The notes: generated by a model not told the origin, from the letters alone. 64,000 bases of DNA from a virus (IMGVR_UViG_3300044535_001062:55-64054), one strand, 5' to 3'; shown: positions 2,335 to 60,358, counted from the first letter of the stretch. Made by a program: numbers and translations.

Positions 2335-3057
2335 ATGACAACCAAAAACATCACCACCGCTGAAGCTATTATAGCTTCAATCTCAGACATGAAAGTTTCA
2401 AGCCAAAAGGCTTACATCACCAAAAACATTAATCAGCAAGCTGATTACATTAAAACTATCGAAGATAAGTTTTACAACCGAAAGTGGAAGCACTACTATG
2501 GTGAACCTCTTAATGAAGAGGTTATCCTTAACGAAATTGCTCAACTCGAAGAGTTGGTAGGTGCTAAGGCTCTCCTTAACGGAGAGGACTGGCAAAAGGT
2601 ATCCGCTAAGAAGTCAGCTAAAGCTGTGAAGTCGAAAGCTGTGGTATCTGAAACCCCAAAGCCTACGGCTTCAGAAACGGCACTTGCCGAATTGACGAAG
2701 TCAATGACAAACCTCACCTCTCAACTCACAGAGTTGACCAAGGTAGTTGTAAAGAATTCAGTCGACATTGCTTCTATTCAGAAGCAAATTGAAACAATCA
2801 ATCAGCCCAAAGTTACTAAAGTAACTACACCTGTACGAAAGTCTCAGCCAAAGGCTGTTGCCTCAAAGAAAGCCGAAATTATCGAAGATAAGCCGGCAAT
2901 CAAGAAAACAAGCAAGTCTTTGCTTGAGGAATTGTTCGGTTCTTTCAGAACCGTGAAAGCCGACAAGCCAAAATCAACCAAGCCAAGCCGTAAGGAATAT
3001 AATCCTTACGGCAACAGCTACAAAGCAAAGAAAATGGCTTACATGGAAGTTCGTTAA
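2335..3057 (+). CDS. Early hypothetical protein with coiled coil and Lys/Pro-rich low-complexity C-terminus
   Basis: 240-aa ORF; TTAAAAATC-ATG start context. Confidence 0.8.
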   Translation: MTTKNITTAEAIIASISDMKVSSQKAYITKNINQQADYIKTIEDKFYNRKWKHYYGEPLNEEVILNEIAQLEELVGAKALLNGEDWQKVSAKKSAKAVKSKAVVSETPKPTASETALAELTKSMTNLTSQLTELTKVVVKNSVDIASIQKQIETINQPKVTKVTTPVRKSQPKAVASKKAEIIEDKPAIKKTSKSLLEELFGSFRTVKADKPKSTKPSRKEYNPYGNSYKAKKMAYMEVR

Positions 3058-29846: not shown

Positions 29847-32800
29847 TTATTCGTACTCTAGAATGTAGCCATCGAGACCAGTATTACTCTGACCAGCTTC
29901 TTTTTTCTGTTCGATTACCTTCTGCTGAACCTTTGTTGGCTTTTTTCCTTTTCCTTCATAATCTAGATCATACTGCTCTAGAATATTGGAATCATTCATG
30001 TTACTTTGATTATTAGGTGTAATAATAGCTGTACTGGGGTTTTCATTGAATTTTTTCATTTCTTCAATTAGACCAGTACTAAACTGAGCAAAGTAATTAG
30101 GATCTTTGAGTATTTTAGAAACAATATCCATGTCAATTTTATATGGAGTTTCGACCTGACCATTTCTTTGTTTTCTAACAAAGTTTTCATAATCCTCTCC
30201 GGTTTCTTGACCACCATAAGTAGCAGCAGGCAATTCACTCATGATACTACGCATTTCAACTTCCTGCATAGCAAAGAATCTATCCTTGTCTTCGGTATAC
30301 ATCTTGTATCTCTCTTTATCAATAAGAGTCCATGTACCAAGCATTGTTATTGCATCCGCAGCCGAGTAAATCTTAGACAACAAAGAACCAAGCTGTTCGT
30401 ATCCAAACAAAATATTAGGATTATTCATGCCACCAATAGGTGTTTTTTTATCTGCATCATAGTTTAGTTCAGAGTCCATATCAATGAACTTTTTGTAAAT
30501 ACCATTATCAATTATATACTTTTGAACTAAATCTCTACGAACGTTTGCATTGAATATCAAAAAATTATTGTATTCTTCTGTTCCAAGTTTATACTGGTTT
30601 CCGGATCTATCGACCAACATCTTGGGCAATTGAGTAGGAAGTGCTTGCCATGCATCGCCTTTTTTACAAGCCAAGTACACCAATGCTTCCCAGTCTGGGG
30701 TTTCATATCCGGCTACACCACGAGTTGCCCTGGTAATGTCGAATGTGTTGTATAAGAATTTGCCAAACATTGCTCCTTCCGGTGTCTGCAACACAGGCTT
30801 ACCAAACGCATCAACTTTTACTGGCATTTTATCGAGTTCTGCTTCAACAAACGGAAGATCAACCATCTTGTCCGGATCACCAATTGGCCAGCGTTCTGAC
30901 ATTTTAATACCCAATTTAGTAAAGAATGTGGTCAAGAATGGACTTTCTACTTTTTGACCAAACGCTTTGAATGGAGCGGCATCTTTCGCATCGTAATCAA
31001 CCACATATTTACGATTCATTTTGTCAATAAACGACAGTGAGTTAGGAAGTATTCCAGAAGATAGCGTGGTAACCAAATCTCCTAAACCAGTAGCTAACTT
31101 GTTATCATCTTCTGCATCTGCGATTGTTTTGGCAAAAGATTGTATACCACGTACAAACGTTTGGTCTAAGATGTAGCTACCAGCGGATCCATAGTTACCA
31201 AATATTGAGAAACCACCATCTTCCATAGCATCTTCAATAATCCCACGATTAACAAATCGATTTTTCTTATTGCCTTCTTTTTCTTTATACTCTCTGAACT
31301 GAACATATGTAGCAGCACCGAATACACCAAACCCACGATAGTCAATAATCAAATCGTTTTTCATATCCCACAATCCGCTCTGACGATTCTGATCACCTCT
31401 CAACATAGCTCTTAACAATGTGATGTTTATTGAGTACGGTCTTTCTAAAGAATATACGTAAGTATTTGATTTCTTTTTGTCTTCCTCATTTTCATCAGAT
31501 GGAGAACCGGTTGCTGCACCTGCTCTTGCGATAAGAGATGCGACATACTGAACACCAATTCCGACCAAGGCCCTAGCTAGGATTCTATCCATATCCCTGG
31601 AGTTAACTCTTGCTCTTTCAGACATTTCTGCACCTTCGATTGCCTTTCCGGAAACTTTTCTTTTTACAGACTTTGCTCCAATCACAGCCAATTTAGCAAG
31701 AGCATATTCCGGCATCAAAAATTCCATAAGTTCGATTGCATAGTTAGATGGAATTCTTGTGAACGGAACTACACCTGTTCCAATAAGTCTAAACATTCTA
31801 CTAATCAACTTACCATTGCCTTCATCTACCTTTGTTACTCTTTTTACACGACTCATCCAGTCAGTAATGGCGTTGTCATTAGAGTAAACAAAACGAAGTG
31901 CTTCTGTATTTGCATTAGCATTTCCATAATCAGAATTGATTTTGATGTATGCATCACGCATAGCATCCATCTCCTTTTTGATTGCAGCTTTTTCAGCAGA
32001 AGAGACAGCATTTGCCATTTTCTTTTTGAGATTCAAATAAGTAGGAGTGAATTTGAAATCTTCTGAAACCGCAGAGTAATAAGCGAAATCACGGAAAACA
32101 GCATCCACGGAAGACAAAGCTCTGAAAATAATATCCGGAATCACACCAAACGTACCCTGCATACCAGAAATCAACTGACCTTTTTTGCTGATTTTTCCAA
32201 CTTCATTCAATTTATATCCGTACTTGTCAGCAATTTCTTCATTTGTGAAATTGTTATAACCCAAACTTCTAGCAGCCAACGTAGTCCAAAGCTGTACAGA
32301 TTTTGACATTGCTTTAAATGAATTGAATCCCATCGCATAGTTTTGTGGAGTCTGATACGACTGAACAAGTGTTCCGTCCTTCAGAATACGGTAAGCTGTT
32401 GCAAATCCCTTTGGCATGCCATATGTAACTCCAGTCCAGAAATCACGGAGATTTTTCTTCGTGGTCGGTTCCATTTTGACACCAGTTACCAGTGATTTTA
32501 CTTTTGCAGGAACCCAGCTTATCGCAGAACTCAACGGATCTGTAACCAAGGTAACCATGAATTTAACAATGTTAGAGAGGTTGTTTACAGCCAATGACGA
32601 TGGTGTCATCAAACCGCCTTTTACGAAACTTATATACGTTTCTGTAACAGAATCATCTCCTTCGAATCTAGAACGCTCATTTACGTAGTTTTCGGCAGCT
32701 TGCATGTACTGATTGTACATGTCCTGGTTATACTCTAGATTTGTTTTGTTTGGGTTAAATCTAGATACTCCATATGGATTGGCTTCTGCATCAGCTTTAG

Positions 32801-35800
32801 ATAGTTTATACTGTTCTTTTGCGTTGTCGAGCTGACTCGCCAGATCAAGAATTCTCTTTTTTGCTTCCTCCGGGATAGTAAGTCCTTTTTTCTCGGCTCT
32901 ATTAAACAAGGCTCTAGTGCTAGATAAGAAACTATCTTTAGTCAGTTGTCTAAACAACTGAAGCATCCTACCAATATCAGTACCGGCTTTTAGAATTTTA
33001 GCATATTGATTTCTAACAAACTCTGGATCATCGTTTCTTTGTTTGGCATCAATCAAATCTTTGATAGCCATTGCCAACGGAACATCTCCGTTTTCAATTT
33101 GGTCAAACAGCGTCTGAAGAATTACCGGGTAATCAATAGGATCGATGTTCTCGATTTCGTCCATCAGTGCCTTCTGGTCTCTGACAACACGGATTGCTTC
33201 TTGTTCATTTTCAAGCACATCAGCTTCTTCTTTGAACATTCCACCCATTCTCTGCTGCTTTTCGATATTTGCACGCTGTCTCAGAGAGAAATAATCCTGC
33301 AAATCAACCGGATCAAAGCCAGTTTTCAGTAGAGCAGAATACAGCTCATCATCGGTTATTCCTTTGAATTCTGGATTAGCTTTAGTTTCATCGATAAATT
33401 TAGCAATTTCATCAAAGATATTCTGTGCCGGACTTTGTTTCTTAGGTGCTGCGGTGGTCTTTGCTTCACCCAACATTGAATCGTAGATTCTACGCATACC
33501 ATCACTCAGAGGTACATCAATTTCACTTCCTTGAATATACTGATAAATGTAGTACATCCATTTTTTAAAGTCTTCAAATATCTTCTGAAGCTTGCTGCTC
33601 GGAGCTTTGCCTTCTGCTAGGTATCTTTCAAATCCACGAGCAAACAACTCAGATGTTTCTCTTGTCCAAACATCATGACCTACACTTTGTAAAAATTCCA
33701 AACGTTCATCCGGTGTCAAGAACTTCTCACGAACGTGAGCTAATTCGTGCATAGCCGTAAATACGTTTGGATTGGTAAGTGCAAACATGATTGTTTTACC
33801 GGTATCCATATTCACAGTTGCACCATGAGCTCCAGTTGCGTTTCGACTAAACATTGCCATACCTTCAGCGACAATGCGATTGGTCTGAGGTGTCAAATCT
33901 ATGGCCAGAAAATCTGGATTAGGAACTATGAACTTAAGCTTTTCTTTTTCGTAAAAACTATCCTTTATTTTGTCAAATTCAGAAGAAAGAAAACTAGTTT
34001 CCTGTGAAGATAAAGATGTCAATTGACTGATATCTTTTAGTTTAAAATAAATATCTATTTCATTTTTATCAAATCCGCTTTTTTCTAATTCACTCACTAA
34101 CGATTCTTTACTCAGTCCTCTATAATTAGGATTTTCGTTTTTATTTTTAGTGTTTATTTCTTTAACCCTATTTGATACTTTACGGTATTCAGCAGATTCT
34201 TTTTTAACAATATTCACTACGTTTTGCACTCCTGCTTCAGAAACATAGCTATCGAAACTACCCATTTGATTCATGTAATTGAACAAAGGCTGTATTGCAG
34301 GATTCAAAGAATCTACAAAAGGCTGGTATCCAGTAATTTTAGTTCTGCTTGTCTGAAACCCAAGTTTTTGTTTTAAAGCTTCAATTCTTTTAGGTATAGT
34401 TTCATTATAAAATCTATTCAATCCGCTAACTTGTTTTTGAACATCTTCTTCACGTGAATCTGGTGTCATTTGTAAAACAACAGGAGCAATATTTGCCGGA
34501 TCGGTTATAATTATTCTTGACAATCCTTTATCGGCAGCAACTTTTAATAGTTGTTTTACAACCAAATCTGTAAATTTTTCTGTGTCTGAAAATGGAGTGC
34601 TTTCTTTTAATGCTGTTCTAATTTCTCTTGATATTTTTTCATAATCAGCTTTTTCATTTTCTGTCAAAACTATATCTTTATCAAAATAATCAACTATTAT
34701 TTCTCGAATATCAGAATTCTGCTGACTCGAACGATTCTTATAATAGTTCAATACACTTTTTATTTCTTTTGCGGTAGCTCCTCTTTCTTTCAATTCTTTT
34801 TTGTGTCTTTCTTGAATTGCATCAAGCATGCCCCACAAGGTATATCCGGGATAAAAATTTATTTTTATATAATCTAATTTTTGTTTAGTCTCTTTGTTTC
34901 GTATTTCCTGCGTCTGATCTGACTGCAGTTCATGTACAAACAAAGCCAAATTACCATTTTCATCTACTACAATTTCTGTTCTTGCGTGAGCCAATACATG
35001 TCTTGGATTTTTAGTGAAGTGTTTTCGATCTACATATTTCTGAACAAATGAATTTCTTTGTTCAACCAATGTCTGTAAAGCCCTATTAAGCTGTTCGTTT
35101 TCTTTTACAGCACTCGTGTATTCAGTTCTGAAGTTTCCATTTTCATCCAAAAGTTGGTCTTGAGGAATTTCAGCCGTAATCGACATCTTTTCTAGCAGTT
35201 TATTTATCATGCTATTAAGATTTTTGATATACGGATGATTTGTTACCGGAATAGTCAAAAGATGTTCTTGATATGTATTTGGTAATGCTGCATTATTAAT
35301 AAAGCCTTTGAAACCTTCAAATTCCTGTCCAAAATCAGCTTTGTAAAAATCTTTTCTATCGAGTTCTTCTTTTAATTCAACGTATATTTTTATTAATTTT
35401 TCAAGAGATTTTTTATTTTCGCTGTCTAAATTTAAAACTTGTCCGTCTTTTCCTATTGAATTTTTTATATCATTAATAGTTTTAGCTAATTCAGCATATT
35501 TGGCAGGATCCGAAGCAACATATTTGCTGTAAACCTCGAGTTCTTCGCTAGATATATCTGTCAAGTCTATAAGCCTGTAATTACCATCAGAAAAGTAAAC
35601 AAATACCCCTGCCATGCTAACACCTTCTGTTTCTTGTGTTAAGTCTAAAGCAACTTCTTTTGAAAGGTTTATAGCAGCAGAGTTTATATTTATATTATTA
35701 AGTATGAATACTTTTTCTACATTCCTAACCTGGGCTTCTGAAAACCTATCGTAAGAAACAAGTTCCGGTCTCGTAGTAGCCCAATCTAACAGTTCCTGTT

Positions 35801-38800
35801 TACTTATCGTTGTTACTGGATTTCCATCTATATCAACTCTAGAACGCATAGTTTCAATAAAGGCATCCAGTCCCATGAATTTAAGTTCCACTTCCTTTGC
35901 ACCTGCGGTAAGCAGTTCTTTTTTCAAGTTGTTTAGCTCTATTGGCTTATCGTTTCTAAACTTATCTAATATTGCAACATCAACATTATTATAAAACGCA
36001 GTACCCAAATTCTTAGCGTAGTTGTTACGCATCTGAATGGCTATGAACTGTTTCTTTTGCAAATCAGCCATTTGTTTAGCATTCATGTTCTTTGGCAATA
36101 CGTTCTGATCCAAAAATATACTAGCAGCAGATTTGTTATTAAGTTCTGGTTTGTTTTGATATTCAGAATATCTTTCTTCGAATTGTTGTTTAGATATTAA
36201 ATTTTGACCAACGAATGCGTCTTCAAGTTCTTGTTTTGTGAATTCTGAAACTGGCTTATACGAATCAAATACGCCACCCATATATTTTTCAATCCCTGGG
36301 AACATTTGATAGTATATTTGTCTAGCTTCATTATCTGATGAAACATCCTCTTGTAATCCGGCTAATGTTTTATCGACATCCAAACGACTCATTTCGTCAA
36401 CAATGTCAACCACACTAGATAAATAATTAGAAAGTTCACCGGCATCAAAAGTAAGCGTTTCTGGATCTCTATAAAGAGTATTTATTACGTTACCATACTC
36501 ATCTTCTACATCTACAGAACCATATCCAATTACATCCGAAATAGCATCCTGCAACTCGTTTGCACTTTGTAAAACTTCTAAAGCACTATTGTAATCAAAG
36601 CCGCCATTGAAATATTTTTCATCAGCAATTGACTGTTTTAAATCTTGGAGCATATTTACAACTTTTAGTGCTTTTGCTTTTTCCTCTTTGCTAAAATTAG
36701 GATCGTTACTTAGATTTTCAAGCCTAGTAATAGATATGTCAATAGCTTCCGATATGTCAGTTTTGTTGTTTTCAACATAATCAATTACAGCGTTAACAAC
36801 AGTAGCTTTATCCGGAACAACTACAGATTTAGTAACTAACTTAGGATCAAAATTATATGCAAAATTTTCATCTAGCATTTGTGATTCGTCTAGATTTGCT
36901 AGTCTCAAAGCAGTAGAGAAAAATATATTAACATTTTCTCCATTGCTTTTCATATCATCAATATGCTTGAATATTTTATTTTTGAATTCTTGAATTTCTT
37001 GATCTGACAAACCATATGTATATCCAATGTCATCAACAACGGTAGTGCTATTCAAATCTTTTGAATTCGAATAAAATAGAATTCTAGCCAAGTCAGAAAA
37101 TACACTCTTATACTGAGCATACTGGAATATGTTTTTGTCTTTGTAAAAATCTATCATATCGCCGATAGCATTTACTTGTGCCTCAGTTAATTTACCATTA
37201 GCTTGTAATTCCAAAGATGCAGAAAGAAGCGTGGATGGAGAAACAAAAGTATCCGCAGTAGCTGGAATATATTCGTTTTCAATAAACTGTGCACCCTTGC
37301 GAACAGCTCTTGTAAGACCAGGAAGTAAATCGTTTTGGTCTTTTATCGTAGCCATGTTAATTACGATATCTCCCGGGCGAGATACTTCGGTTTCTTTTGC
37401 GCCACGAGAGTAAGCAAAATTAGGAACAAACTGAAACGCAGGTGTTCCGGGTTCATATACAATCCTTACGTTAGCTAACTGTAAATCCGGATATCTCTTT
37501 ATAATTCTGTCGTCTCCAACAAGTTCCGATAATTTATATATAAAGTTCTTTTGATCAAATCCTTCTGCTTTATATGCTCTTCCCAAGAATGTACCAAAAA
37601 CTTTGACTACTTTATTGTCAATGAATATTGATTTTCCTGCACTACCTTTTACAGTATATCGTGACGAAAAAAAGTTTTTTTGCATGTTTCCAAATTCACC
37701 ACTAACTTCAAGCATGGGCGAAGTGGGAATAGGGTTACCAAACGCATCGAAGCTAATACCAGTGAGTAGCTCAATTCGATAAGTATCGATGCCTTTTTTC
37801 TGAAGTTCGAGTGCTTTGTTTAGATCAGCAGCAAGCTGTGCAGGAGTAAGTGAATTTTGAAAGAATGGAACCAAGCCTGGATTCTCAGACAACCACACGT
37901 TGAATTGCTCTTCGGTCATCTTCTTGGTTTCAATCATGTTGTTCATGTAATCATCCAGAGTCATTCCTGCTCTCTGTGCGTTAGCTTCAAATGCACGTAT
38001 AGCAATCTCAGCATTTGCTTTTCTTTCTTTTCTTGCTTTGATAGATTTAAAGGGATTCATGGACTTGAAGCCCCAGATATTACCTGCGTCACGATTCAAT
38101 TTTCTCTTCCACTTTGTACGAACCAAATCATTAGCTGCTTTTCTTTCAAGAGCTTCGCTATACTTCTGCATATCAACAGCATTTTCAGATTTAGTTTTTG
38201 CTTCACTTGCAATCTGTTGCTGTGTCATATTGGTCAAATCTACTCCAGTATTTTCAAGATATTCCACCGGAGTAATCTCACCTAGAATAAGTCGAACTGC
38301 ATCAACTTGTTCAGCATCAATTTTTTGGCCAGTAGCATCCAATATCGTAGCTACTTCGTTTCTTCTCATCTGTTCTTTAGTTACAGCTTCTGCTGTTTTG
38401 GCCATGTCAGCTTTACGGTTTTTTGCCGTAGTTTTTGACATCATCGTGCCTGTAAGAAACTTTTCAGTTTTTCCAAATGACTGAGAGCCAGTATATTTAA
38501 CTGCAACAAAGTTGTTGAAGTCGTTTCGCAGGTCACGGAACGATTGTATAGCCTCAGTATCGTTACCAAAGACTTCTTTGATTTTGTCAAGTTTATTTAG
38601 CAAAAAACTGGACACCAAGTTATCAATGGCATCTTCCTGTGTCACCTTGCCTTCGTCAACAAGTTTCTTCATTGTCTCGTTATAGAAATTAGAACGAGCA
38701 ACCGCTGCACGGAATTTATCTAGATTGTTTGTTTTTCTTTCACTAATAGACTGTCCAGTATTTGGATCGGTGTCTGTTTTTGTGAACAAACTTGAGTCGT

Positions 38801-41800
38801 AATCTTTAAGAAGAGGTGCGATATAATCAGCAATTTTTGCTGCTTTATTCCTAACGTTATTTGTAATCAAAGCTTTTCCGTTTAAGAAAAACGATGATAA
38901 ATTTATTTTAATCCTAGAGCCAATATTCCTAGATAGATCAAATGCTGCGTTTTTTACTTCGTCTGTAGTTTCATCTACGTTCTCGGCAATTCCAGTAAAC
39001 AATGCGATGCTTTGTGTGGCGTTTTCATTTAGAGTTCTTTTGAACTTAGCTTGGCTAGAAGCCGTTGCTTTGTCAACACGTTCTTTCTTTCTTCTAGAAG
39101 ATTCGTTCTGCGTAGTTTGATATACTACCTTTCCGTCACGTTCGTTTATCTTTTCTTCGGTCTCGGTGATACCAAGATTTTTACGAGCAATGGTCTCAGC
39201 TTTTTGTCTTGATACAATACCATTGTTCTTTGCTTTAGTTTCTACGTAATCTCTGGTTCTATCGTTTAATGGAACAAATTCATCAGTAGTTGATGTGAGT
39301 CCCCGGGCTTGAAGAACACCAGTCTCAGAATCGTATCGATAAACAACTTTATTATCTACAACACCATTCTTGTCTGCTACATAAAACTCTTCTCCTAAAT
39401 TACCTGTTCTTTTTTCTACTTTTACTTGATCGTTTCCAACTGAGCCATCTACCGAACTTCCGGTGGTAGTCTTCATGTTGTTTGGAGCATCTGCTTCTGT
39501 CATATTAACTGCGTATTCAACAGGAACAGTAGCTCTAGCTGTATTCTGATTTATGTTGACAGGAGCAGCAGCCACGGTCATGCCAGACGGTGTTGAGTTA
39601 TTTGCATTGGTATTTTTAATAGTATTATCCAAAAGGCGAATAATTTCTTCGTCTGTACTAGATGTATTTTCTCCATATACTTTGTCAAGATGCGCTTGAA
39701 ACTTTTGTCGTGTTGCATACAAAAGATTTAGATTTTCAAAATTTAAAGTAGAAAAAGTAAAACACATCAAAGCAGTAGCTCTCAAATTCAATAATCGTTC
39801 ATCTGTTGTAGTTCCATATGAATTCTTAGTTGCATCTACAAAATCATATCCATTTTGTTTTGCATATTCCCAAACATTAGAAAAAGTCTCTTCTGTCAAA
39901 CTAGCTGTACCCATGGACAGCTTTTTACCCATCACATATAAAAGAGCACCAATTTTATTCGATGGAATCAATTTTCCGAGCTTTAGTACTCCTGTAGTTT
40001 TATCAAATACCTTCGATCCAATTTTTTCTGCAACACCCATTCCTCCAGGTTGGCCAGATACTTCATAAGCAAAGAAAGGAACACCATAATCAACAACAGC
40101 TTTTTCAATTACATTAAATACTCCAATACCTGTTTTTCCATATCTATCAGCCATGTAGGACCTAACCGCTACTGCGGACTTTCCTGTGAAAAGTTGTTGT
40201 AAGTTCTTTGTCGCACCACTACCTCTCATGCTAATCAAAAATCCTATTTTCATAGATTCCAGTATTCCGTCTGAAATACTTTGGTTCTCTATGATTTTTT
40301 GTTGTGCATTTAGAACTTCCGGATTTACATACAATCCGTTTTCTCCTAAGAACTTTGCTGCACGAACAATTTCTTCATTGGGTGTAAGATATACATCATC
40401 TGAAAAAATGTTTTTTGTTTCATTGATTGTCTTTGAAAACGCACCGGAAAATACACCTTCAGATTCGCCCTTGGTCAAATCAACATTCAAATGAATAAGC
40501 GTATTTGCAGCTTTTAACTGAGCATCTACTTCGGTCATTTGTTGATTAAGTTTCATCAACTTATACGCATATATCTTTTGACCAAGCGAACGCATATCAG
40601 GTTGACCTAGCTGACCGAGCGTATTAGCATATAAATTAAACCAGAAGCCACGATTTTGTTCCAGTGCTGCATCTATATCGTCTTCTGTCATACCTGCCGG
40701 AAGAATAGCAGGTTGATCTAAAGATTGTAATCCAGAAGTCGATCCTAGTTTCGATATTTGATTTTCAATCCAATCTCTCTTTTCAAAAAGGACGTTTCGC
40801 TTTTCTTTGATTATGGCTAAATCTGTTTTCTTTTCAGCAGCTAACGTAGAGTTATATACTTTTTGTGCGAAATCTTTTTGTTCTCCTTCGTATCTTTTGC
40901 CGGAAGCATCGTAAAATTCTATACCTGATACCCCAAGCTCTTTTTTCAATTGTTCAATCTGGGATTTCAGACTATTAATTTGAGCCAAACTCTGTGGAGA
41001 TATCGCTGTCTTCTTTTTGTCTTTGGTTTGGGCAGTAGCCATGATATCACCAATCTGTTTGTACAAAGTAGCTATCTTCTGTTCTTTTGGTGACAGACTT
41101 GATATAGCTCTTTGATCCATGGCTTGATCATACTTGGAATATTCTATTCCAGTTGTAGGATCAACAAAGAAACCCTGTTTAAGTCTCTTTTCATTGTATT
41201 TTCCCTGTGTTACTTTAGTTAGATACTTGGTCTTATAGTATTCTAATCTTTCTGGAATCTCATCTCCTTCTAAACCAGATTGTTCTAGTTTTTTAACGAG
41301 TTGATCATAGTCAAAACTACCGTATCTAACCGTAGAATATTCTAGGTTTGGAGTGGTCGATCCAGCAAGGTCAACATCGTAGCTAACGTAGTTACCAACT
41401 TCTTGTTCCCAAACCAATTTACCAAGGTTTTCTTCTTCTATGCTAGCGATCGATTTGTTTTCACCATCGTTAAAAACAGTAGCTGCATTACCAATTAAGT
41501 CCTGGGCTATCAGATCATCTGCCTTGGCAATACGCATGTTTGTCTGATCTTCAGCACGAGCCAAACCAGCACCAAGAGCAGCATCGATGAATATGTTACT
41601 GTCCTTTAAAATCTTTTGTGCGCTTTCTAATCCGGCAGCTTTTATCTCTTTATTGTACTTTCTACCATAAGCATCACGATTAATAGGATCCAAAATGTAA
41701 TCGTAATACTTTTTGTAATCACTTATATTTTCGCCATAAGCAGTTTTGTTCAATCCCTTCTGAACAACCATGTCGAACATCTGTCTAGCTTGATAGTCTC

Positions 41801-42560
41801 TTTGAGCTATTTTGTATTTCTGAGACACTGGATCGACATTCATCTTGTCAAACTCTGGTCTATAGCCGGGCATTCCAACACCTACTTCTTTGCCGTAGTA
41901 TGTCTCATATTTTCTAGTAAATTCTGGATCAAATATAGTTCTACCTACACCACCTTCTGCAGCAGTTCTAAATGCACCTTTGTCGTACATGCTGACACCA
42001 CCGGACAAAACATTCTGAAAATCAGAATCGTTTGCTATTTTAAAGTACTGGCCAATTTTGTCTTTGTACTGAAAAAACAGCGGTCTTATATTCCCGGGGT
42101 TCTGAAGATAAGAATCCAATTCTTCAGAACTTCTTATACGTGAACCACCACCTAAATCAATCTGACCTGTTTCATCGTTTTTCAGAACCGTGTAAAGATT
42201 TTCCACGTTCATGTAACCCAACTCGCTTATTTTGGAAAGTTCTGTTTCTCGTTCCAGTTGACGAGCTTCTGCTTCCTTTATACCTTTTTTGAATTCTTGA
42301 GGTGTACCAAACAATTCAGTTGTTTTGGTACTGGTTTTTGTCAATAAAGATTTTTGCTCTGATGTGAGAGGTTTTACTTTAGCCTCTTCCTTGAATCCAC
42401 CTCCAGTCGTTATCCTGGGTTTAGGCTTAAGTTCATCTTCAGTGGTACTAGTGCCAACAGCACCACCGGTAAATCTCTTTAAAATGGCTTCTTGTTCTGG
42501 AGTAGTTTTTTTATTTGCAGAAACGATAGGTTTCGGTTGAGGTTTTTTATCTTCTGGCAT
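29847..42560 (-). CDS. Giant polyvalent virion / ejection protein (4237 aa) with zincin-like metallopeptidase domain
   Basis: HELAH...ELFARGFERY; HF...LAH.R...V.ELQSD; directly follows the ejection-type genes. Confidence 0.8.
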   Translation of the reverse strand: MPEDKKPQPKPIVSANKKTTPEQEAILKRFTGGAVGTSTTEDELKPKPRITTGGGFKEEAKVKPLTSEQKSLLTKTSTKTTELFGTPQEFKKGIKEAEARQLERETELSKISELGYMNVENLYTVLKNDETGQIDLGGGSRIRSSEELDSYLQNPGNIRPLFFQYKDKIGQYFKIANDSDFQNVLSGGVSMYDKGAFRTAAEGGVGRTIFDPEFTRKYETYYGKEVGVGMPGYRPEFDKMNVDPVSQKYKIAQRDYQARQMFDMVVQKGLNKTAYGENISDYKKYYDYILDPINRDAYGRKYNKEIKAAGLESAQKILKDSNIFIDAALGAGLARAEDQTNMRIAKADDLIAQDLIGNAATVFNDGENKSIASIEEENLGKLVWEQEVGNYVSYDVDLAGSTTPNLEYSTVRYGSFDYDQLVKKLEQSGLEGDEIPERLEYYKTKYLTKVTQGKYNEKRLKQGFFVDPTTGIEYSKYDQAMDQRAISSLSPKEQKIATLYKQIGDIMATAQTKDKKKTAISPQSLAQINSLKSQIEQLKKELGVSGIEFYDASGKRYEGEQKDFAQKVYNSTLAAEKKTDLAIIKEKRNVLFEKRDWIENQISKLGSTSGLQSLDQPAILPAGMTEDDIDAALEQNRGFWFNLYANTLGQLGQPDMRSLGQKIYAYKLMKLNQQMTEVDAQLKAANTLIHLNVDLTKGESEGVFSGAFSKTINETKNIFSDDVYLTPNEEIVRAAKFLGENGLYVNPEVLNAQQKIIENQSISDGILESMKIGFLISMRGSGATKNLQQLFTGKSAVAVRSYMADRYGKTGIGVFNVIEKAVVDYGVPFFAYEVSGQPGGMGVAEKIGSKVFDKTTGVLKLGKLIPSNKIGALLYVMGKKLSMGTASLTEETFSNVWEYAKQNGYDFVDATKNSYGTTTDERLLNLRATALMCFTFSTLNFENLNLLYATRQKFQAHLDKVYGENTSSTDEEIIRLLDNTIKNTNANNSTPSGMTVAAAPVNINQNTARATVPVEYAVNMTEADAPNNMKTTTGSSVDGSVGNDQVKVEKRTGNLGEEFYVADKNGVVDNKVVYRYDSETGVLQARGLTSTTDEFVPLNDRTRDYVETKAKNNGIVSRQKAETIARKNLGITETEEKINERDGKVVYQTTQNESSRRKKERVDKATASSQAKFKRTLNENATQSIALFTGIAENVDETTDEVKNAAFDLSRNIGSRIKINLSSFFLNGKALITNNVRNKAAKIADYIAPLLKDYDSSLFTKTDTDPNTGQSISERKTNNLDKFRAAVARSNFYNETMKKLVDEGKVTQEDAIDNLVSSFLLNKLDKIKEVFGNDTEAIQSFRDLRNDFNNFVAVKYTGSQSFGKTEKFLTGTMMSKTTAKNRKADMAKTAEAVTKEQMRRNEVATILDATGQKIDAEQVDAVRLILGEITPVEYLENTGVDLTNMTQQQIASEAKTKSENAVDMQKYSEALERKAANDLVRTKWKRKLNRDAGNIWGFKSMNPFKSIKARKERKANAEIAIRAFEANAQRAGMTLDDYMNNMIETKKMTEEQFNVWLSENPGLVPFFQNSLTPAQLAADLNKALELQKKGIDTYRIELLTGISFDAFGNPIPTSPMLEVSGEFGNMQKNFFSSRYTVKGSAGKSIFIDNKVVKVFGTFLGRAYKAEGFDQKNFIYKLSELVGDDRIIKRYPDLQLANVRIVYEPGTPAFQFVPNFAYSRGAKETEVSRPGDIVINMATIKDQNDLLPGLTRAVRKGAQFIENEYIPATADTFVSPSTLLSASLELQANGKLTEAQVNAIGDMIDFYKDKNIFQYAQYKSVFSDLARILFYSNSKDLNSTTVVDDIGYTYGLSDQEIQEFKNKIFKHIDDMKSNGENVNIFFSTALRLANLDESQMLDENFAYNFDPKLVTKSVVVPDKATVVNAVIDYVENNKTDISEAIDISITRLENLSNDPNFSKEEKAKALKVVNMLQDLKQSIADEKYFNGGFDYNSALEVLQSANELQDAISDVIGYGSVDVEDEYGNVINTLYRDPETLTFDAGELSNYLSSVVDIVDEMSRLDVDKTLAGLQEDVSSDNEARQIYYQMFPGIEKYMGGVFDSYKPVSEFTKQELEDAFVGQNLISKQQFEERYSEYQNKPELNNKSAASIFLDQNVLPKNMNAKQMADLQKKQFIAIQMRNNYAKNLGTAFYNNVDVAILDKFRNDKPIELNNLKKELLTAGAKEVELKFMGLDAFIETMRSRVDIDGNPVTTISKQELLDWATTRPELVSYDRFSEAQVRNVEKVFILNNININSAAINLSKEVALDLTQETEGVSMAGVFVYFSDGNYRLIDLTDISSEELEVYSKYVASDPAKYAELAKTINDIKNSIGKDGQVLNLDSENKKSLEKLIKIYVELKEELDRKDFYKADFGQEFEGFKGFINNAALPNTYQEHLLTIPVTNHPYIKNLNSMINKLLEKMSITAEIPQDQLLDENGNFRTEYTSAVKENEQLNRALQTLVEQRNSFVQKYVDRKHFTKNPRHVLAHARTEIVVDENGNLALFVHELQSDQTQEIRNKETKQKLDYIKINFYPGYTLWGMLDAIQERHKKELKERGATAKEIKSVLNYYKNRSSQQNSDIREIIVDYFDKDIVLTENEKADYEKISREIRTALKESTPFSDTEKFTDLVVKQLLKVAADKGLSRIIITDPANIAPVVLQMTPDSREEDVQKQVSGLNRFYNETIPKRIEALKQKLGFQTSRTKITGYQPFVDSLNPAIQPLFNYMNQMGSFDSYVSEAGVQNVVNIVKKESAEYRKVSNRVKEINTKNKNENPNYRGLSKESLVSELEKSGFDKNEIDIYFKLKDISQLTSLSSQETSFLSSEFDKIKDSFYEKEKLKFIVPNPDFLAIDLTPQTNRIVAEGMAMFSRNATGAHGATVNMDTGKTIMFALTNPNVFTAMHELAHVREKFLTPDERLEFLQSVGHDVWTRETSELFARGFERYLAEGKAPSSKLQKIFEDFKKWMYYIYQYIQGSEIDVPLSDGMRRIYDSMLGEAKTTAAPKKQSPAQNIFDEIAKFIDETKANPEFKGITDDELYSALLKTGFDPVDLQDYFSLRQRANIEKQQRMGGMFKEEADVLENEQEAIRVVRDQKALMDEIENIDPIDYPVILQTLFDQIENGDVPLAMAIKDLIDAKQRNDDPEFVRNQYAKILKAGTDIGRMLQLFRQLTKDSFLSSTRALFNRAEKKGLTIPEEAKKRILDLASQLDNAKEQYKLSKADAEANPYGVSRFNPNKTNLEYNQDMYNQYMQAAENYVNERSRFEGDDSVTETYISFVKGGLMTPSSLAVNNLSNIVKFMVTLVTDPLSSAISWVPAKVKSLVTGVKMEPTTKKNLRDFWTGVTYGMPKGFATAYRILKDGTLVQSYQTPQNYAMGFNSFKAMSKSVQLWTTLAARSLGYNNFTNEEIADKYGYKLNEVGKISKKGQLISGMQGTFGVIPDIIFRALSSVDAVFRDFAYYSAVSEDFKFTPTYLNLKKKMANAVSSAEKAAIKKEMDAMRDAYIKINSDYGNANANTEALRFVYSNDNAITDWMSRVKRVTKVDEGNGKLISRMFRLIGTGVVPFTRIPSNYAIELMEFLMPEYALAKLAVIGAKSVKRKVSGKAIEGAEMSERARVNSRDMDRILARALVGIGVQYVASLIARAGAATGSPSDENEEDKKKSNTYVYSLERPYSINITLLRAMLRGDQNRQSGLWDMKNDLIIDYRGFGVFGAATYVQFREYKEKEGNKKNRFVNRGIIEDAMEDGGFSIFGNYGSAGSYILDQTFVRGIQSFAKTIADAEDDNKLATGLGDLVTTLSSGILPNSLSFIDKMNRKYVVDYDAKDAAPFKAFGQKVESPFLTTFFTKLGIKMSERWPIGDPDKMVDLPFVEAELDKMPVKVDAFGKPVLQTPEGAMFGKFLYNTFDITRATRGVAGYETPDWEALVYLACKKGDAWQALPTQLPKMLVDRSGNQYKLGTEEYNNFLIFNANVRRDLVQKYIIDNGIYKKFIDMDSELNYDADKKTPIGGMNNPNILFGYEQLGSLLSKIYSAADAITMLGTWTLIDKERYKMYTEDKDRFFAMQEVEMRSIMSELPAATYGGQETGEDYENFVRKQRNGQVETPYKIDMDIVSKILKDPNYFAQFSTGLIEEMKKFNENPSTAIITPNNQSNMNDSNILEQYDLDYEGKGKKPTKVQQKVIEQKKEAGQSNTGLDGYILEYE

Positions 42561-56897: not shown

Positions 56898-59150
56898 TTA
56901 AAGAGCACCAGCTGCTTCTGGTCCGGCAACTACTTCGTCACCAGGCTGAGGTTCTTCTGCCACGGCCTGATTGGCAGCTTCTTCCATAGCTCCTGGGGTT
57001 TCCGGAACACCTTGTTCAATTGGACTAGCATTTTTAACTGCCTCAGAAGCGGCCTTGAGTTCTTGACGATAGTTCGAACCTTCTTGTGCAACTTGTGCTT
57101 GTTGCATTTGAGCTTGCATCATGGCTTCTTGTTGAGCAGCCTGCATGATCTGTTGTCTACGCATCTCTTCTTTTTTCTCCATATCTTTCTTAGCCATAGA
57201 GTATTCAAGTTCTTTGAGAAGTTCTGTGTAAGACTTAGATGTTTCGATCTTAATATAATCACGCATGTCAATAAGACCGTTCTGCATTGCAGCTTGTGCG
57301 ATAGCGAGTAATCTTTCTTTTGCCTGTTCGTCCAAAAAGTCTTTTACCTTTATGTATACACCAAAATCTTCGAACTTAACTTCATCGGTAATTTCTAAGA
57401 AGTCATATCCTCTGTCGTCAAGTAATCCAACTCCCTCTTCTTTGAGAGAAAGAAGAGAAACTTTATATTGATTCAATGCGTACTGAAGATCCTTTTCAAT
57501 GAAACGAATAAAACCTTGGTAAAGGTAAGCTGTACCTAGGTTTGACTGGGCAATGGAACCTGCCTGTGTTTTAGCACCAAGATAGCCTTGCTGCTGTCCC
57601 ATAGCTATTTTTGGAACGTTAACAATCTCTTCCATGATACGTTCTTCTTCTCTCTTCAAGTTGATAAGTTCACGAACGTTTGGATCAAGTGTCATGTCAA
57701 CTACTTCTACAATACGGTTATTGTCATTGTTATTGTAATCTTCACCTGTGGCGTTTCCGTCTGTAATATGAATACCCATTCTCTCAAAGTCGTTGAGAAC
57801 TTCTTGGGGGGTAGCAGAGCCAAGTTTGTGTTTGTTTAGAATAAACACTTTTCCCTTGGCCCGGTCAGTAGCTTTTGTGATTTCGTAGTTCAGATAGTCA
57901 ATTCTATCCTGGTGTTTATGAAGCCTCGATGCAATAGAACGTGTTTCGCCCATAACCATGTTAGGAAGAAACACACTAATTGGAAGTTCAACTTCATTCT
58001 TATCATCAAAGTTTCTAACGATGTTATTTGTTTCACCCCAATTGACCATATACTTGTTGGCTATGAGGGTTCCTTTATAAACAGTCTTAACCCAGTATTG
58101 AGAGTTACTTCTCTTTCTAGTTTTAGAGAAGTGTTCATTGCCATACTGATCTTTGGTTTTTTCGTAACGTAGTTCTTTGTAGCCAACCCAGTAACCGGTA
58201 ACACATGCCATCTTAGGTACACCGCTCCAGTTATACCACCAGCGAAGTTGGTTTGAACTGATGTATTCTTCTCCGAGCATTTTGTCGATTGTCTGAGTAT
58301 TTACAGTTTTAATCTCTTCTATATCTGCCGGAGAAAGATAAGCCATGAAGTCAGGATTAGAAAGAATTTCACCTGGTGTGTACCAGTCAACTTTTCCTAC
58401 AAACTGAGCTCTTGAATTATAATCATCATCGACTGTGTTATCCCAAATCAAGTTGTAAGGAAGGATAACTTCTTTGATCTGTCTTCCTTTTTTAATGTAG
58501 TTCTCAATACCAATTACACCACCAAGAGTTAAATACAGGAAAGCCTGTTTGTATTTCTCGATAAACTTGTTTCTGTAAAGAATGTCTTCAGCCAACCTTT
58601 GAGCAATTTCTTCTGAGTACTCTTTGTAATCATACGTCATGTACTTCTGAAGATCCTGTTCGTTTTCAAAATTAACCATTCCGGTAGGATTGAATTCAAC
58701 GCCTTTTTCTGACATTGCATCTGCAATTTCTTTAAGAATGATTTTACTCAAAGCCATTTGATAGATTTCATTTTTCTTTGAAATCAAAGCTTTGGATGTA
58801 CCACGAACTGTAGGCTCGATATTTTCAATCATTTTGATAGCACTTCCTAACATGAAGTCTATCATTGAAGTTAATTTTTGACCGTTTATCCAGACGTGAG
58901 GTAACTTGCAGTTATCAGCGTCTTGTGTTGAATAGTAGTAATCACGGTTTTCTTGTTTACCTAGGTAGTAGGTAAACATGCGGATCATTTCATCTATTGG
59001 TTTGTCCCAAGATTGAGGTGTCCGATACCCCAGCTGATTTTGTTGTGTATTATACTTTTCGGCTATGTATTGTATGTTCTCTTTGAACCAAATAGCGTTC
59101 TTGTCTTTCTCGGGTACAAATTGTTTTGGTTGGTCTTTTATTGATAACAT
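56898..59150 (-). CDS. Portal protein
   Basis: 750 aa; P.Q.VP...K...W start, Gln-rich C-terminal barrel helix; synteny. Confidence 0.85.
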   Translation of the reverse strand: MLSIKDQPKQFVPEKDKNAIWFKENIQYIAEKYNTQQNQLGYRTPQSWDKPIDEMIRMFTYYLGKQENRDYYYSTQDADNCKLPHVWINGQKLTSMIDFMLGSAIKMIENIEPTVRGTSKALISKKNEIYQMALSKIILKEIADAMSEKGVEFNPTGMVNFENEQDLQKYMTYDYKEYSEEIAQRLAEDILYRNKFIEKYKQAFLYLTLGGVIGIENYIKKGRQIKEVILPYNLIWDNTVDDDYNSRAQFVGKVDWYTPGEILSNPDFMAYLSPADIEEIKTVNTQTIDKMLGEEYISSNQLRWWYNWSGVPKMACVTGYWVGYKELRYEKTKDQYGNEHFSKTRKRSNSQYWVKTVYKGTLIANKYMVNWGETNNIVRNFDDKNEVELPISVFLPNMVMGETRSIASRLHKHQDRIDYLNYEITKATDRAKGKVFILNKHKLGSATPQEVLNDFERMGIHITDGNATGEDYNNNDNNRIVEVVDMTLDPNVRELINLKREEERIMEEIVNVPKIAMGQQQGYLGAKTQAGSIAQSNLGTAYLYQGFIRFIEKDLQYALNQYKVSLLSLKEEGVGLLDDRGYDFLEITDEVKFEDFGVYIKVKDFLDEQAKERLLAIAQAAMQNGLIDMRDYIKIETSKSYTELLKELEYSMAKKDMEKKEEMRRQQIMQAAQQEAMMQAQMQQAQVAQEGSNYRQELKAASEAVKNASPIEQGVPETPGAMEEAANQAVAEEPQPGDEVVAGPEAAGAL

Positions 59151-59217: not shown

Positions 59218-59487
59218 TCAGCTCATGCAGTCTTTGATTTTTTGAGATAGTTCCATTTTGGAACACTTTACAAGATAATGTTCTAAACCAATGCAGATTA
59301 CTGTAAGTGGTTTGTTGAAGGTACTCCTCTCATCTGAAAAGTAATAGTCGATTCTCCAAAAGTGAATAGGAAAAGTTGGCGAATCATAAATATCTGAGAA
59401 GCCATTATCTTCTAGATATTCTTTGTTGTCCTCGTCTTCATCTGGATCGAGAGCCAGCACTTCTAGAATAAGTGGTTTTTTCAGCAT
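59218..59487 (-). CDS. Hypothetical protein
   Basis: 89-aa ORF preceded by TAAATTTG-TTTT-ATG. Confidence 0.7.
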   Translation of the reverse strand: MLKKPLILEVLALDPDEDEDNKEYLEDNGFSDIYDSPTFPIHFWRIDYYFSDERSTFNKPLTVICIGLEHYLVKCSKMELSQKIKDCMS

Positions 59488-59501
59488 AAAACAAATTTAA
59501 T

Positions 59502-59542
59502 AAAAAAAAGAATACAAAAAAAAGAATACGAAGTATTCTTTT
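59502..59542 (-). terminator. Intrinsic terminator closing the candidate ncRNA
   Basis: AAAAGAATAC-TTC-GTATTCTTTTTTTT; the GTATTC-T8 unit is duplicated. Confidence 0.65.
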
Positions 59543-59849
59543 AATACACATAAGAGTGTATTTGTATTATCCAATATGCATCTTTGGGGTGTTCTCCGGC
59601 ATACAGTGAGCTATCCCGATAAAAGTCTATCGAGTTAGTCACCGTTGCTGTGGGTACATCTTCGTACACGCCCCCCAACATACACCAATAAGTCGTGCTT
59701 GCTTATTGGCTTGAGATCCACTTTCGAGAGTTTTGCACCTCCCTTTCAGTCCTACGGCTCATCTCTTTGTGCCACCGCTGCGCTTTGCTGAAATCCCATG
59801 GTAACGCTTTACACCGGAACGCCATCGTTATTTTTCCGCCCATTCCGAC
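59516..59849 (-). ncRNA. Candidate stand-alone structured ncRNA (about 330 nt)
   Basis: Own promoter (59854-59861) and terminator; GC-richer than its flanks; several stems; no ORF of 60 aa or more. Confidence 0.55.
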
Positions 59850-59853
59850 ACCG

Positions 59854-59861
59854 CAAATATA
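59854..59861 (-). promoter_or_regulatory. -7 promoter element for the candidate ncRNA
   Basis: TATATTTG on the - strand, with TTTTTG upstream at about -30. Confidence 0.7.
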
Positions 59862-59878: not shown

Positions 59879-60298
59879 TCAAAACGTTCCTACGAAATTT
59901 TTTTTCTCAAGGTAGTCCAAACGATATAAGATAAGGTCCAGAAAGCTTATGTTGAAAGTGAATCCGAACGCCATGGCAAACTTTAGAATGTTGTGCGTAT
60001 TGTAGTGTTCTGGATTGTACAGCTGATAGTCGCTGAACGCATAATCAAATATTCCGGTTTTATCATAAACCCTGGCGTGAAGCATGCCCTTTACGATGTT
60101 ATGCTTCTTGACTAAGTAGTCTAGATTGAAAGCAAGGTTCTTAGCCATGAGTGAAAATCTTTTATCTACCATTTCGTAGTAGTACCCTTTCTTCAACTCG
60201 CTAATTTTCTTGTTTTCTACGGCTAGAAAAAACTCTTGTGACTTGATCTCAGAAATTTTTTTATCGATTTCTTCTAAAGAAATTTTGTTTTTCGACAT
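59879..60298 (-). CDS. Hypothetical protein
   Basis: Start moved to ATG 60298. Confidence 0.7.
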   Translation of the reverse strand: MSKNKISLEEIDKKISEIKSQEFFLAVENKKISELKKGYYYEMVDKRFSLMAKNLAFNLDYLVKKHNIVKGMLHARVYDKTGIFDYAFSDYQLYNPEHYNTHNILKFAMAFGFTFNISFLDLILYRLDYLEKKNFVGTF

Positions 60299-60305
60299 AA
60301 AGTTG

Positions 60306-60321
60306 TATATTTGCAAAGGTA
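60306..60321. promoter_or_regulatory. Abutting opposed -7 promoter elements at the strand switch
   Basis: TATATTTG (+, 60306-60313) abuts TACCTTTG (-, 60314-60321). Confidence 0.65.
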
Positions 60322-60358
60322 AGGATACTAAAAGAAAAAACACTAAAACTATATATTA

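Follow-up and report, generated by a model that had tools for sequence, protein, structure and literature searches.

A predicted double-pseudoknot RNA upstream of the portal gene in a crAss-related freshwater phage, and its probable kinship with Rfam RF02932

ROOL and GOLLD are large, ornate orphan RNAs of bacteria and prophages (PMC5737381; 10.1101/2024.12.08.627333). Another orphan is the Rfam family RF02932 (Betaproteobacteria-1), which is represented by a 120-nt model and has been known only from Betaproteobacteria. It reportedly goes back to Weinberg et al. 2017, NAR 45:10811. A term search of the main text of that paper (PMC5737381) returned 0 mentions of Betaproteobacteria-1, and a literature search on that name returned nothing relevant. 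Here we describe an RNA gene in a 64,000-nucleotide stretch of viral DNA (IMGVR_UViG_3300044535_001062:55-64054; hereafter the window), which is nearly the whole of an IMG/VR virus record of 64,054 bp, about 94% complete, and derives from a freshwater phage that is distant kin of the crAss phages. The RNA is encoded on the minus strand upstream of the portal gene, with a conserved core of about 280 nt (59850-59572) that extends to about 335 nt when counted to the T-runs at its 3' end. The whole window has 0 matches to Rfam at the gathering threshold, those to ROOL and GOLLD included, and a literature search returned nothing relevant on a non-coding RNA beside the portal of crAss-like phages or on structured RNA in Crassvirales.

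The RNA gene and its fold

That this stretch holds a real structured non-coding RNA gene is, in our judgement, highly probable. At its 5' edge a Bacteroidetes-type -7 promoter box, TATATTTG (59861-59854, minus strand), can be read directly, and of the 26 family members examined, 15 have a TAnnTTTG box 7-11 nt ahead of the model start and four others have one 28-59 nt ahead, with the remaining seven lacking it under a strict regular expression. The stretch is poor in open reading frames (ORFs), and its GC content is 0.48-0.53 over 59600-59850 against 0.25-0.41 in the flanks. The 3' end has two AT-rich hairpins, with T8 runs after them at 59523-59516 and 59509-59502 (59502-59561 altogether, minus strand), which can be read directly and likely make up an intrinsic terminator. 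A generic terminator scan gave 0 sites at this end, because the AT-rich hairpins hold too few G-C pairs for its rule; in the closest relative, L025, a different hairpin followed by T9 takes the terminator's place. The portal gene and, in the window, an 89-aa ORF between it and the RNA have TAnnTTTG boxes of their own. The RNA is a predicted self-contained, independently transcribed non-coding gene with its own promoter. An earlier reading of this DNA (hereafter the original prediction) had named the promoter, the GC-richer stretch, a terminator and a separate promoter for the next gene, and all of these are present.

The 360-nt stretch folds with a minimum free energy of -103.8 kcal/mol, a value matched by 0 of 100 shuffles (z = -2.96). 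The only ORF of note inside it, the 46-codon ORF at 59703-59843 (minus strand) that the original prediction had listed, is not conserved: it is open in two of the 14 members, namely the window and L025, and has no start codon or has in-frame stops in the other 12. The RNA makes no protein. Coding-type conservation of this ORF with unconserved stems had been named beforehand as the pattern that would speak against an RNA gene; the opposite is seen, with the stems covarying and the ORF broken in 12 of the 14.

The fold was derived from two alignments: A4, a plain MAFFT alignment of 14 distinct sequences, and A7, an alignment fitted to a covariance model. The 5' domain is a predicted set of five helices locked by two pseudoknots, which together would gather three strongly conserved, purine-rich loops. 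The first helix, P1 (59812-59850; all coordinates in this section are on the minus strand), is a 10-bp stem of UGUCGGAAUG (59850-59841) with CGUUCCGGUG (59821-59812) that closes a conserved 19-nt loop, GGGCGG...ACGAUGG; eight of its 10 pairs show compensatory changes and 93.5% of its alignment cells are paired (A7). It is followed by the P2 hairpin (59780-59807, with 59807-59803 pairing with 59784-59780), in which two of five pairs are compensatory and 91-99% of cells are paired (A4 and A7), and whose loop joins the conserved CCAUGGGA to the 5' strand of the first pseudoknot. This pseudoknot, PK1 (59744-59793), pairs UUUCAG of the P2 loop (59793-59788) with CUGAAA (59749-59744), a strand that comes after the P3 hairpin (four of five pairs compensatory, 100% of cells paired; A4). 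P3 itself (59754-59778) has 5 bp and a conserved 15-nt loop, GGCACAAAGAGAUGA (three of five pairs compensatory, 97% paired; A4). That loop supplies the GAGAU (59765-59761) that pairs with AUCUC (59717-59713), located after P4, to form the second pseudoknot, PK2 (59713-59765; three of five compensatory, 100% paired; A4). The remaining helices of the domain are P4, GGGAG-GTGCAAAA-CTCTC (as RNA, GGGAG-GUGCAAAA-CUCUC; 59743-59726), with five of six pairs compensatory and 98.8% of cells paired (A4), and P5, CCAATAAG/CTTATTGG (as RNA, CCAAUAAG/CUUAUUGG; 59709-59685), with six of seven compensatory and 90.4% paired (A7).

Over the whole domain, 97.5% of the cells in A4 are paired and 17 of 26 pairs are compensatory. 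Of 500 shuffles, 0 attain these values, a significance that is overstated because the member sequences are related; slid controls are 31-53% paired. In A7, which by its construction leans towards structure, the figures are 95.2% and 24 of 33. The many independent pair types, together with the slid controls, make the fold secure. Moreover, G-U wobbles, for example in P1, P4 and P5, occur on the minus strand only. Between the window and L025, whose portal is 84% identical to that of the window, the 5' 140 nt of the RNA are about 93% identical against about 60-65% in the flanking ORFs (estimated by eye from the alignment), and several stems are altered on both sides.

The 3' domain, consisting of P6, P7 and the tail, was examined by single-sequence folding only. 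P6 (59680-59646) is a variable hairpin, TGTTGGGG/CCACAGCA, that encloses GTAC/GTAC, and a hairpin of this type is found in the folds of most of the 14 members (read by eye, untallied). P7 (59604-59644) is a composite hairpin with a conserved internal loop, GGGAUAGCUCAC (GGGAUA(A/G)CUCAC across members), and an inner stem, CTCGATAG/TTATCGGG (as RNA, CUCGAUAG/UUAUCGGG; 59634-59615); it is predicted in 14 of 14 members with the sequence of the inner stem differing, as read by eye from the dot-bracket strings. The 3' tail spans 59572-59603. The four stems of the original prediction, namely P4, P5, P6 and the inner stem of P7, are all where it had placed them, and P4 and P5 covary in relatives; it had missed P1, P2, P3 and both pseudoknots.

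Relationship to RF02932 and the twin motif

In a relaxed Rfam scan, RF02932 is the only meaningful hit of the RNA at E <= 10, covering its first 89 nt with 31.8 bits and E = 3.8e-4 (8.2e-6 as a per-genome E-value), a score below the curated gathering cut-off of 49.4 bits. Sub-threshold matches of 30.3-34.4 bits to the same family were obtained from four of the eight relatives scanned. In the other direction, a covariance model of the 5' domain built only from phage RNAs (R1) matches RF02932 RNAs at their Rfam coordinates over the full model in L147 (16.8 bits, E = 7.9e-4) and L137 (16.5 bits, E = 9.7e-4), and gives a partial match only on L134 (E = 0.62). The pattern of shared loops occurs at 50 bacterial loci, of which 17 were scanned against Rfam and nine carry a bona fide RF02932 RNA, mostly from Burkholderiales; the other 33 looked by eye like chance matches in GC-rich coding DNA and were set aside.

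The phage fold also accounts for the RF02932 RNAs. Eight of them fit the arrangement P1-P2-P3-PK1-PK2 with 87.1% of cells paired and 19 of 31 pairs compensatory, values that 0 of 500 shuffles reach. The two hairpins of the Rfam consensus correspond to P1 and P2, and its GGGU...GCCC to P3; the variable 'ggugc' of the P2 loop forms PK1 with 'gcacc' (three of four pairs compensatory in the eight RNAs), and Rfam's third hairpin corresponds to PK2, the equivalent of which is a GGUGGCGAAG segment whose 3' part pairs downstream (97.9% paired). Both RNAs have a 10-bp P1, with the loop GGuCGG...ACggCAGC in RF02932 and GGGCGG...ACGAUGG in the phage RNA, a P2 loop that reads CUGuGGGaa in the former and holds CCAUGGGAU in the window, a GGUGGC(G/A) motif that opens the P3 loop, and the same double-pseudoknot topology. 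In all, the RNAs of Bacteroidetes phages and of Betaproteobacteria have about 25 conserved unpaired nucleotides in common. At the RF02932 loci, the conserved sequence extends about 130 nt past the end of the Rfam model. In contrast, the phage RNA adds P4 between the two pseudoknot strands, which RF02932 does not have, its 3' domain (P5-P7) is unlike, and it has a Bacteroidetes-type promoter and lives in phages and Bacteroidetes islands, not in Betaproteobacteria. We consider homology between the two to be probable and place the phage RNA with the orphan family as a distant and longer variant, though a non-member by Rfam's own criterion. Hence, of the original claim of an undescribed non-coding RNA, the part that posits an RNA gene in its own right holds, and the part that would have it wholly undescribed does not, given the distant relationship of the 5' domain to RF02932.

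Truncated 5' copies of RF02932 were also seen (L137 61-160, L130 5755-5874 and L140 190-272). The fragment in L137 lies 3.6 kb upstream of a full copy, and that in L140 stops where an ORF begins that was taken by eye for a candidate transposase. Such fragments suggest that the RNA gene may have undergone rearrangement or insertion.

A further feature of these RNAs is what we term the twin motif: the same short variable sequence present twice per RNA, in the P6 loop after ACGA and in the 3' tail after CCAA. In the window the two copies are CGAAGAUG (59664-59657) and CAAAGAUG (59586-59579), both on the minus strand. The motif, 6-10 nt long and lineage-specific, reads AGAUG in the window and ACAGA in the closest relative. 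With fixed windows, the summed self score over 17 members of the phage family is 116, a value that 0 of 5000 permutations reach; the corresponding counts are 0 of 5000 for the type 2 element described below and 29 of 5000 for RF02932. In all three RNA groups the motif covaries, with one copy internal and the other in the 3' tail. Within single sequences the repeat is insignificant in most members, and its spacing is not consistently a multiple of three. Within the RNA, no consistent complement of the motif was found; by eye, the P5 loop could pair with it in some members, the window and L025 not among them.

Genomic setting and occurrence

In the window, the RNA lies between divergently transcribed replication/recombination genes and structural genes, and heads the minus-strand structural module. 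Directly upstream of it is a 154-aa ORF (59879-60343, minus strand) without a Pfam or PHROG family; downstream follow the 89-aa ORF (59218-59487, minus strand) and the portal gene (56898-59150, minus strand; phrog_6547 portal, E = 1.5e-50), whose product has only crAss-like relatives among deposited phages, at 21-22% identity. The structural module further includes a 4,237-aa ORF (29847-42560, minus strand), of the giant kind that in crAss-like phages presumably contains the virion RNA polymerase. The window also encodes a primase-helicase, a DNA polymerase and a RecE-like exonuclease, and its promoters are of the Bacteroidetes TAnnTTTG type. Searches of the window genome found neither an integrase nor a reverse transcriptase, and a scan of the window for tRNAs found none.

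A DNA search of cultured and deposited phages returned no match for the RNA or for a 3.4-kb region. An alignment of 26 portal proteins was used to retrieve 79 portal-anchored viral loci, and iterated nhmmer finds the RNA in 16 of these, always no more than a few hundred bases ahead of the portal start; in one (L036), it is on the strand opposite to the portal. R1 finds a single copy in 14 of 50 whole records, including seven of the 12 that are at least 90% complete; the other five of these near-complete relatives have homologous portals and no RNA. Searching with a motif pattern recovered 34 metagenome contigs, 34 of 34 being confirmed by R1, and the same pattern run over IMG/VR yielded no further records. 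A homologue of the 154-aa ORF is directly upstream of the RNA in 22 of these 34. The absence of conservation in relatives, which the original prediction had listed as counting against the RNA, is thus not what we find. An exact 16-mer scan of IMG/VR gave 22 loci, of which only L017, from a relative that had already been identified, contains the RNA; the other 21 are coding sequence of unrelated phages and were rejected. Two loci have tRNA-like sequences in the vicinity: in L091 (1903-2027, minus strand), a Rfam tRNA match of 36.6 bits with a 69-nt insert lies about 600 nt upstream of the RNA, and in L094 (about 2710-2785, minus strand), a tRNA-like sequence with a CAU anticodon, seen by eye, has next to it an inverted, degenerate copy of the P1-loop motif.

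The pre-portal slot (59500-59860 in the window) is occupied in 50 of the 79 loci, all without the RNA described above, by a second conserved and unrelated non-coding RNA-like element, which we call type 2 (e.g., L076 2729-2943, L083 2724-2949, L093 2666-2879, and 47 further loci). Its 5' end bears a TAnnTTTG box, and its further features are a covarying 5' hairpin with the loop AAUGGGGGUA, an invariant GAAAGGGGGGAAAGGGGGGUAUGG and a long-range helix; L083, the sole type 2 locus scanned against Rfam, has no meaningful match. By nhmmer, one RNA type or the other fills the slot in 66 of the 79 loci, and 13 have neither. Three of the latter (L034, about 2546-3000; L035, about 2440-2990; L087, about 2560-3000) nonetheless have a long, ORF-poor and partly GC-richer stretch before the portal, which could hold further RNA types.

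Outside phages, four contigs (L173, L184, L194 and L197) carry the RNA downstream of homologous tyrosine integrases, either directly or after up to three small genes; the L194 integrase matches PF00589. These contigs are Bacteroidetes chromosomal islands, not phages, and their RNAs form a lower-GC subgroup. After the RNA, the next gene codes for a secreted protein with a T9SS tail in one of them and for a DUF4268 protein in a second. In a further contig the RNA sits among glycosyltransferase-like and glycoside-hydrolase genes; the downstream genes of L173, L194 and L167 are unrelated. No flanking direct or att-type repeats were found in the islands, and no protein is shared between the island proteins and the phage. 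In Burkholderiales, the eight RF02932 loci have no neighbouring gene common to all; H-NS, HipA/HTH and DUF4123 genes occur near them, and no portal does. Two further ideas were dropped: a link to integrases in Betaproteobacteria, since an integrase lies within about 10 kb of RF02932 in only one of four genomes, and a host core gene, since R1, under stricter filters, matches 0 of 151 sampled Bacteroidota genomes. RF02932 is present in two of 151 sampled Burkholderiales genomes, one of them being the centre genome. Two Betaproteobacteria metagenome-assembled genomes gave Rfam 5_ureB_sRNA matches of 94-129 bits (L131 4792-5081 and L145 756-1040) in GC-rich, coding-looking sequence. Taken together, the RNA is a predicted part of a scattered superfamily on mobile elements that spans freshwater and marine phages, Bacteroidetes islands and, as RF02932, Burkholderiales.

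Proposed function and comparison with known RNAs

We propose that the RNA would act in trans as a folded molecule rather than as a leader of the portal operon. The double-pseudoknot core would serve as a scaffold, that is, as a binding platform or catalytic core whose partner would be shared by very different hosts, and the twin motif, predicted to be single-stranded in the P6 loop and the 3' tail, would be a specificity element that recognises a nucleic-acid or protein partner. The scatter of the family over mobile elements without a portal fits a trans-acting cargo of such elements. As a functional assignment made from sequence comparison, a trans-acting scaffold with a twin specificity motif is tentative, although a reasonable candidate; as a blend of a real RNA gene, homology with RF02932 and such a scaffold, the explanation has somewhat better than even prospects.

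The nearest alternative, which overlaps with this explanation, is a ribozyme or RNA-only machine in which the three loops, held by the double pseudoknot, would make up an active site or an interface for assembly, and the twin motif may mark two equivalent substrate or processing sites. The conservation of about 25 unpaired nucleotides from Bacteroidetes phages to Betaproteobacteria, the compact double-pseudoknot topology and the want of a conserved protein neighbour all suit such a machine; no known Rfam ribozyme family matches, however, and no internal guide complementary to the twin motif is consistent across members, so we rate it as unlikely. A role at the DNA level, as a replication origin, pac site or attachment site, might be suggested by the position between divergent replication/recombination and structural genes and by the adjoining integrase in the four Bacteroidetes contigs, just as the 46-codon ORF might suggest a small protein gene. 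Yet the G-U wobbles are confined to the RNA strand and would read as A-C mismatches on the opposite one, covariation extends to the pseudoknots, 12 of the 14 members have a broken ORF, the window genome has no integrase or reverse transcriptase, and the islands have no flanking direct repeats. Because the covariation is strand-specific, both versions are largely refuted, and we give them next to no credence.

Two other explanations tie the RNA to the portal. It might be a cis leader of the virion-gene operon, with the RNA and its terminator controlling, through attenuation or processive antitermination, whether transcription runs on into the portal and head genes; the put RNA of HK022 and the short late transcript of lambda, which ends before the late genes, are precedents. 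The RNA does stand first in the minus-strand structural module, its 3' end consists of hairpins with T-runs after them, and the other RNA-like element takes the same slot in 50 of 79 relatives; on the other hand, the portal and the 89-aa ORF have their own TAnnTTTG boxes, the L036 RNA is opposite in strand to the portal, the island RNAs have no portal downstream, the downstream genes of L173, L194 and L167 are unrelated, and RF02932 has no conserved neighbour at eight Burkholderiales loci. Alternatively, as the original prediction had suggested by analogy with the packaging RNA (pRNA) of phi29, the RNA might dock on the portal and aid the packaging motor. The pRNAs of phi29 relatives differ from one another in sequence, and linkage between the RNA and the portal gene is tight in this phage group, where 66 of 79 relatives have some type of RNA in the slot. 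Nevertheless, the window has no match to a pRNA model in Rfam, where one exists, family members are found away from portal genes in integrase islands and Burkholderiales chromosomes, the RNA is missing from five of 12 near-complete relatives, and no intermolecular loop-loop complementarity was noticed, although no systematic search for it was made; the analogy is unsupported. The occurrence of the RNA without a portal in the islands and its inversion in L036 make both roles unlikely: the leader we consider quite improbable, and a pRNA-like function has in our view only a very slim chance.

Several observations weigh against the favoured explanation of a trans-acting scaffold related to RF02932. 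Besides the two reservations on the covariation figures and the sub-threshold score given above, four of the eight relatives scanned (L071, L031, L032 and L036) have no RF02932 match at E <= 0.1, and R1 has no match at E <= 1 at five of eight RF02932 loci (L126, L145, L149, L123 and L130). A look for RNA data sets containing the stretch came back empty, and the contigs of three metatranscriptomes from the same study match only the low-complexity A/T run at 59488-59528. The regions of the twin motif were first spotted by eye, even though the windows of the test were fixed, and a search for its complement in six complete phage genomes gave only the trivial opposite-strand site and G-U-rich matches at chance level. 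Finally, 15 of the 16 viral loci have the RNA immediately before the portal and in the same orientation, and in 28 of the 34 metagenome loci it is followed by a portal homologue of like orientation, so that a portal-linked or cis role is possible for the phage members.

A bolder extension of the trans-acting scaffold is that the three RNA scaffolds, namely the main RNA, type 2 and RF02932, are variants of one design, programmable RNAs of mobile elements whose specificity would be set by the twin motif. In its boldest form, the motif would be a guide-like or immunity-like determinant, or two ribozyme substrate sites, and the conserved core would work without a dedicated protein encoded nearby. 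We regard this unification as doubtful. If the twin motif does set specificity, these RNAs would constitute a new kind of programmable element; otherwise, they remain a well-defined family for structural and functional study, with the covarying motif as a concrete and mutable experimental handle. Large, deeply conserved RNAs without an assigned function are rare, and earlier examples opened new biochemistry. The present comparison connects an orphan Rfam motif with Bacteroidetes islands and with uncultured phages of fresh and marine waters, makes it appear more than twice as large and reinterprets its fold as a double pseudoknot. It also reveals a pre-portal slot that in this phage group is almost always RNA-bearing, with at least two kinds of RNA.

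Among known systems, the pRNA of phi29 resembles the RNA in being phage-encoded, structured and, here, linked by its gene to the portal; it differs in that there is no match in sequence or structure, in that the family also occurs without a portal, and in that the RNA is not universal among phages with homologous portals. A conserved scaffold bearing short sequences that are present twice and change together between lineages recalls RNAs with paired recognition, such as seqA/seqC of the phage P4 CI RNA, the c4 RNA of P1/P7, nutL/nutR of lambdoid phages and the template repeats of the DRT2 non-coding RNA. Unlike in those, both copies here are on one RNA and six phage genomes offered no complementary partner; the window phage has no reverse transcriptase, and the distance between the repeats is not always a multiple of three. 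Compared with ROOL and GOLLD (PMC5737381; 10.1101/2024.12.08.627333), the phage RNA has no Rfam match to either and is about half their size or less; it shares with them the character of a large, highly structured, standalone RNA gene that is often phage-borne, and a slot that may also hold tRNA genes, as in L094 (by eye) and L091 (by Rfam). The closest counterpart is RF02932, which, like the phage RNA, is a standalone gene of sporadic occurrence without a conserved protein neighbour and carries the twin motif before its 3' end.

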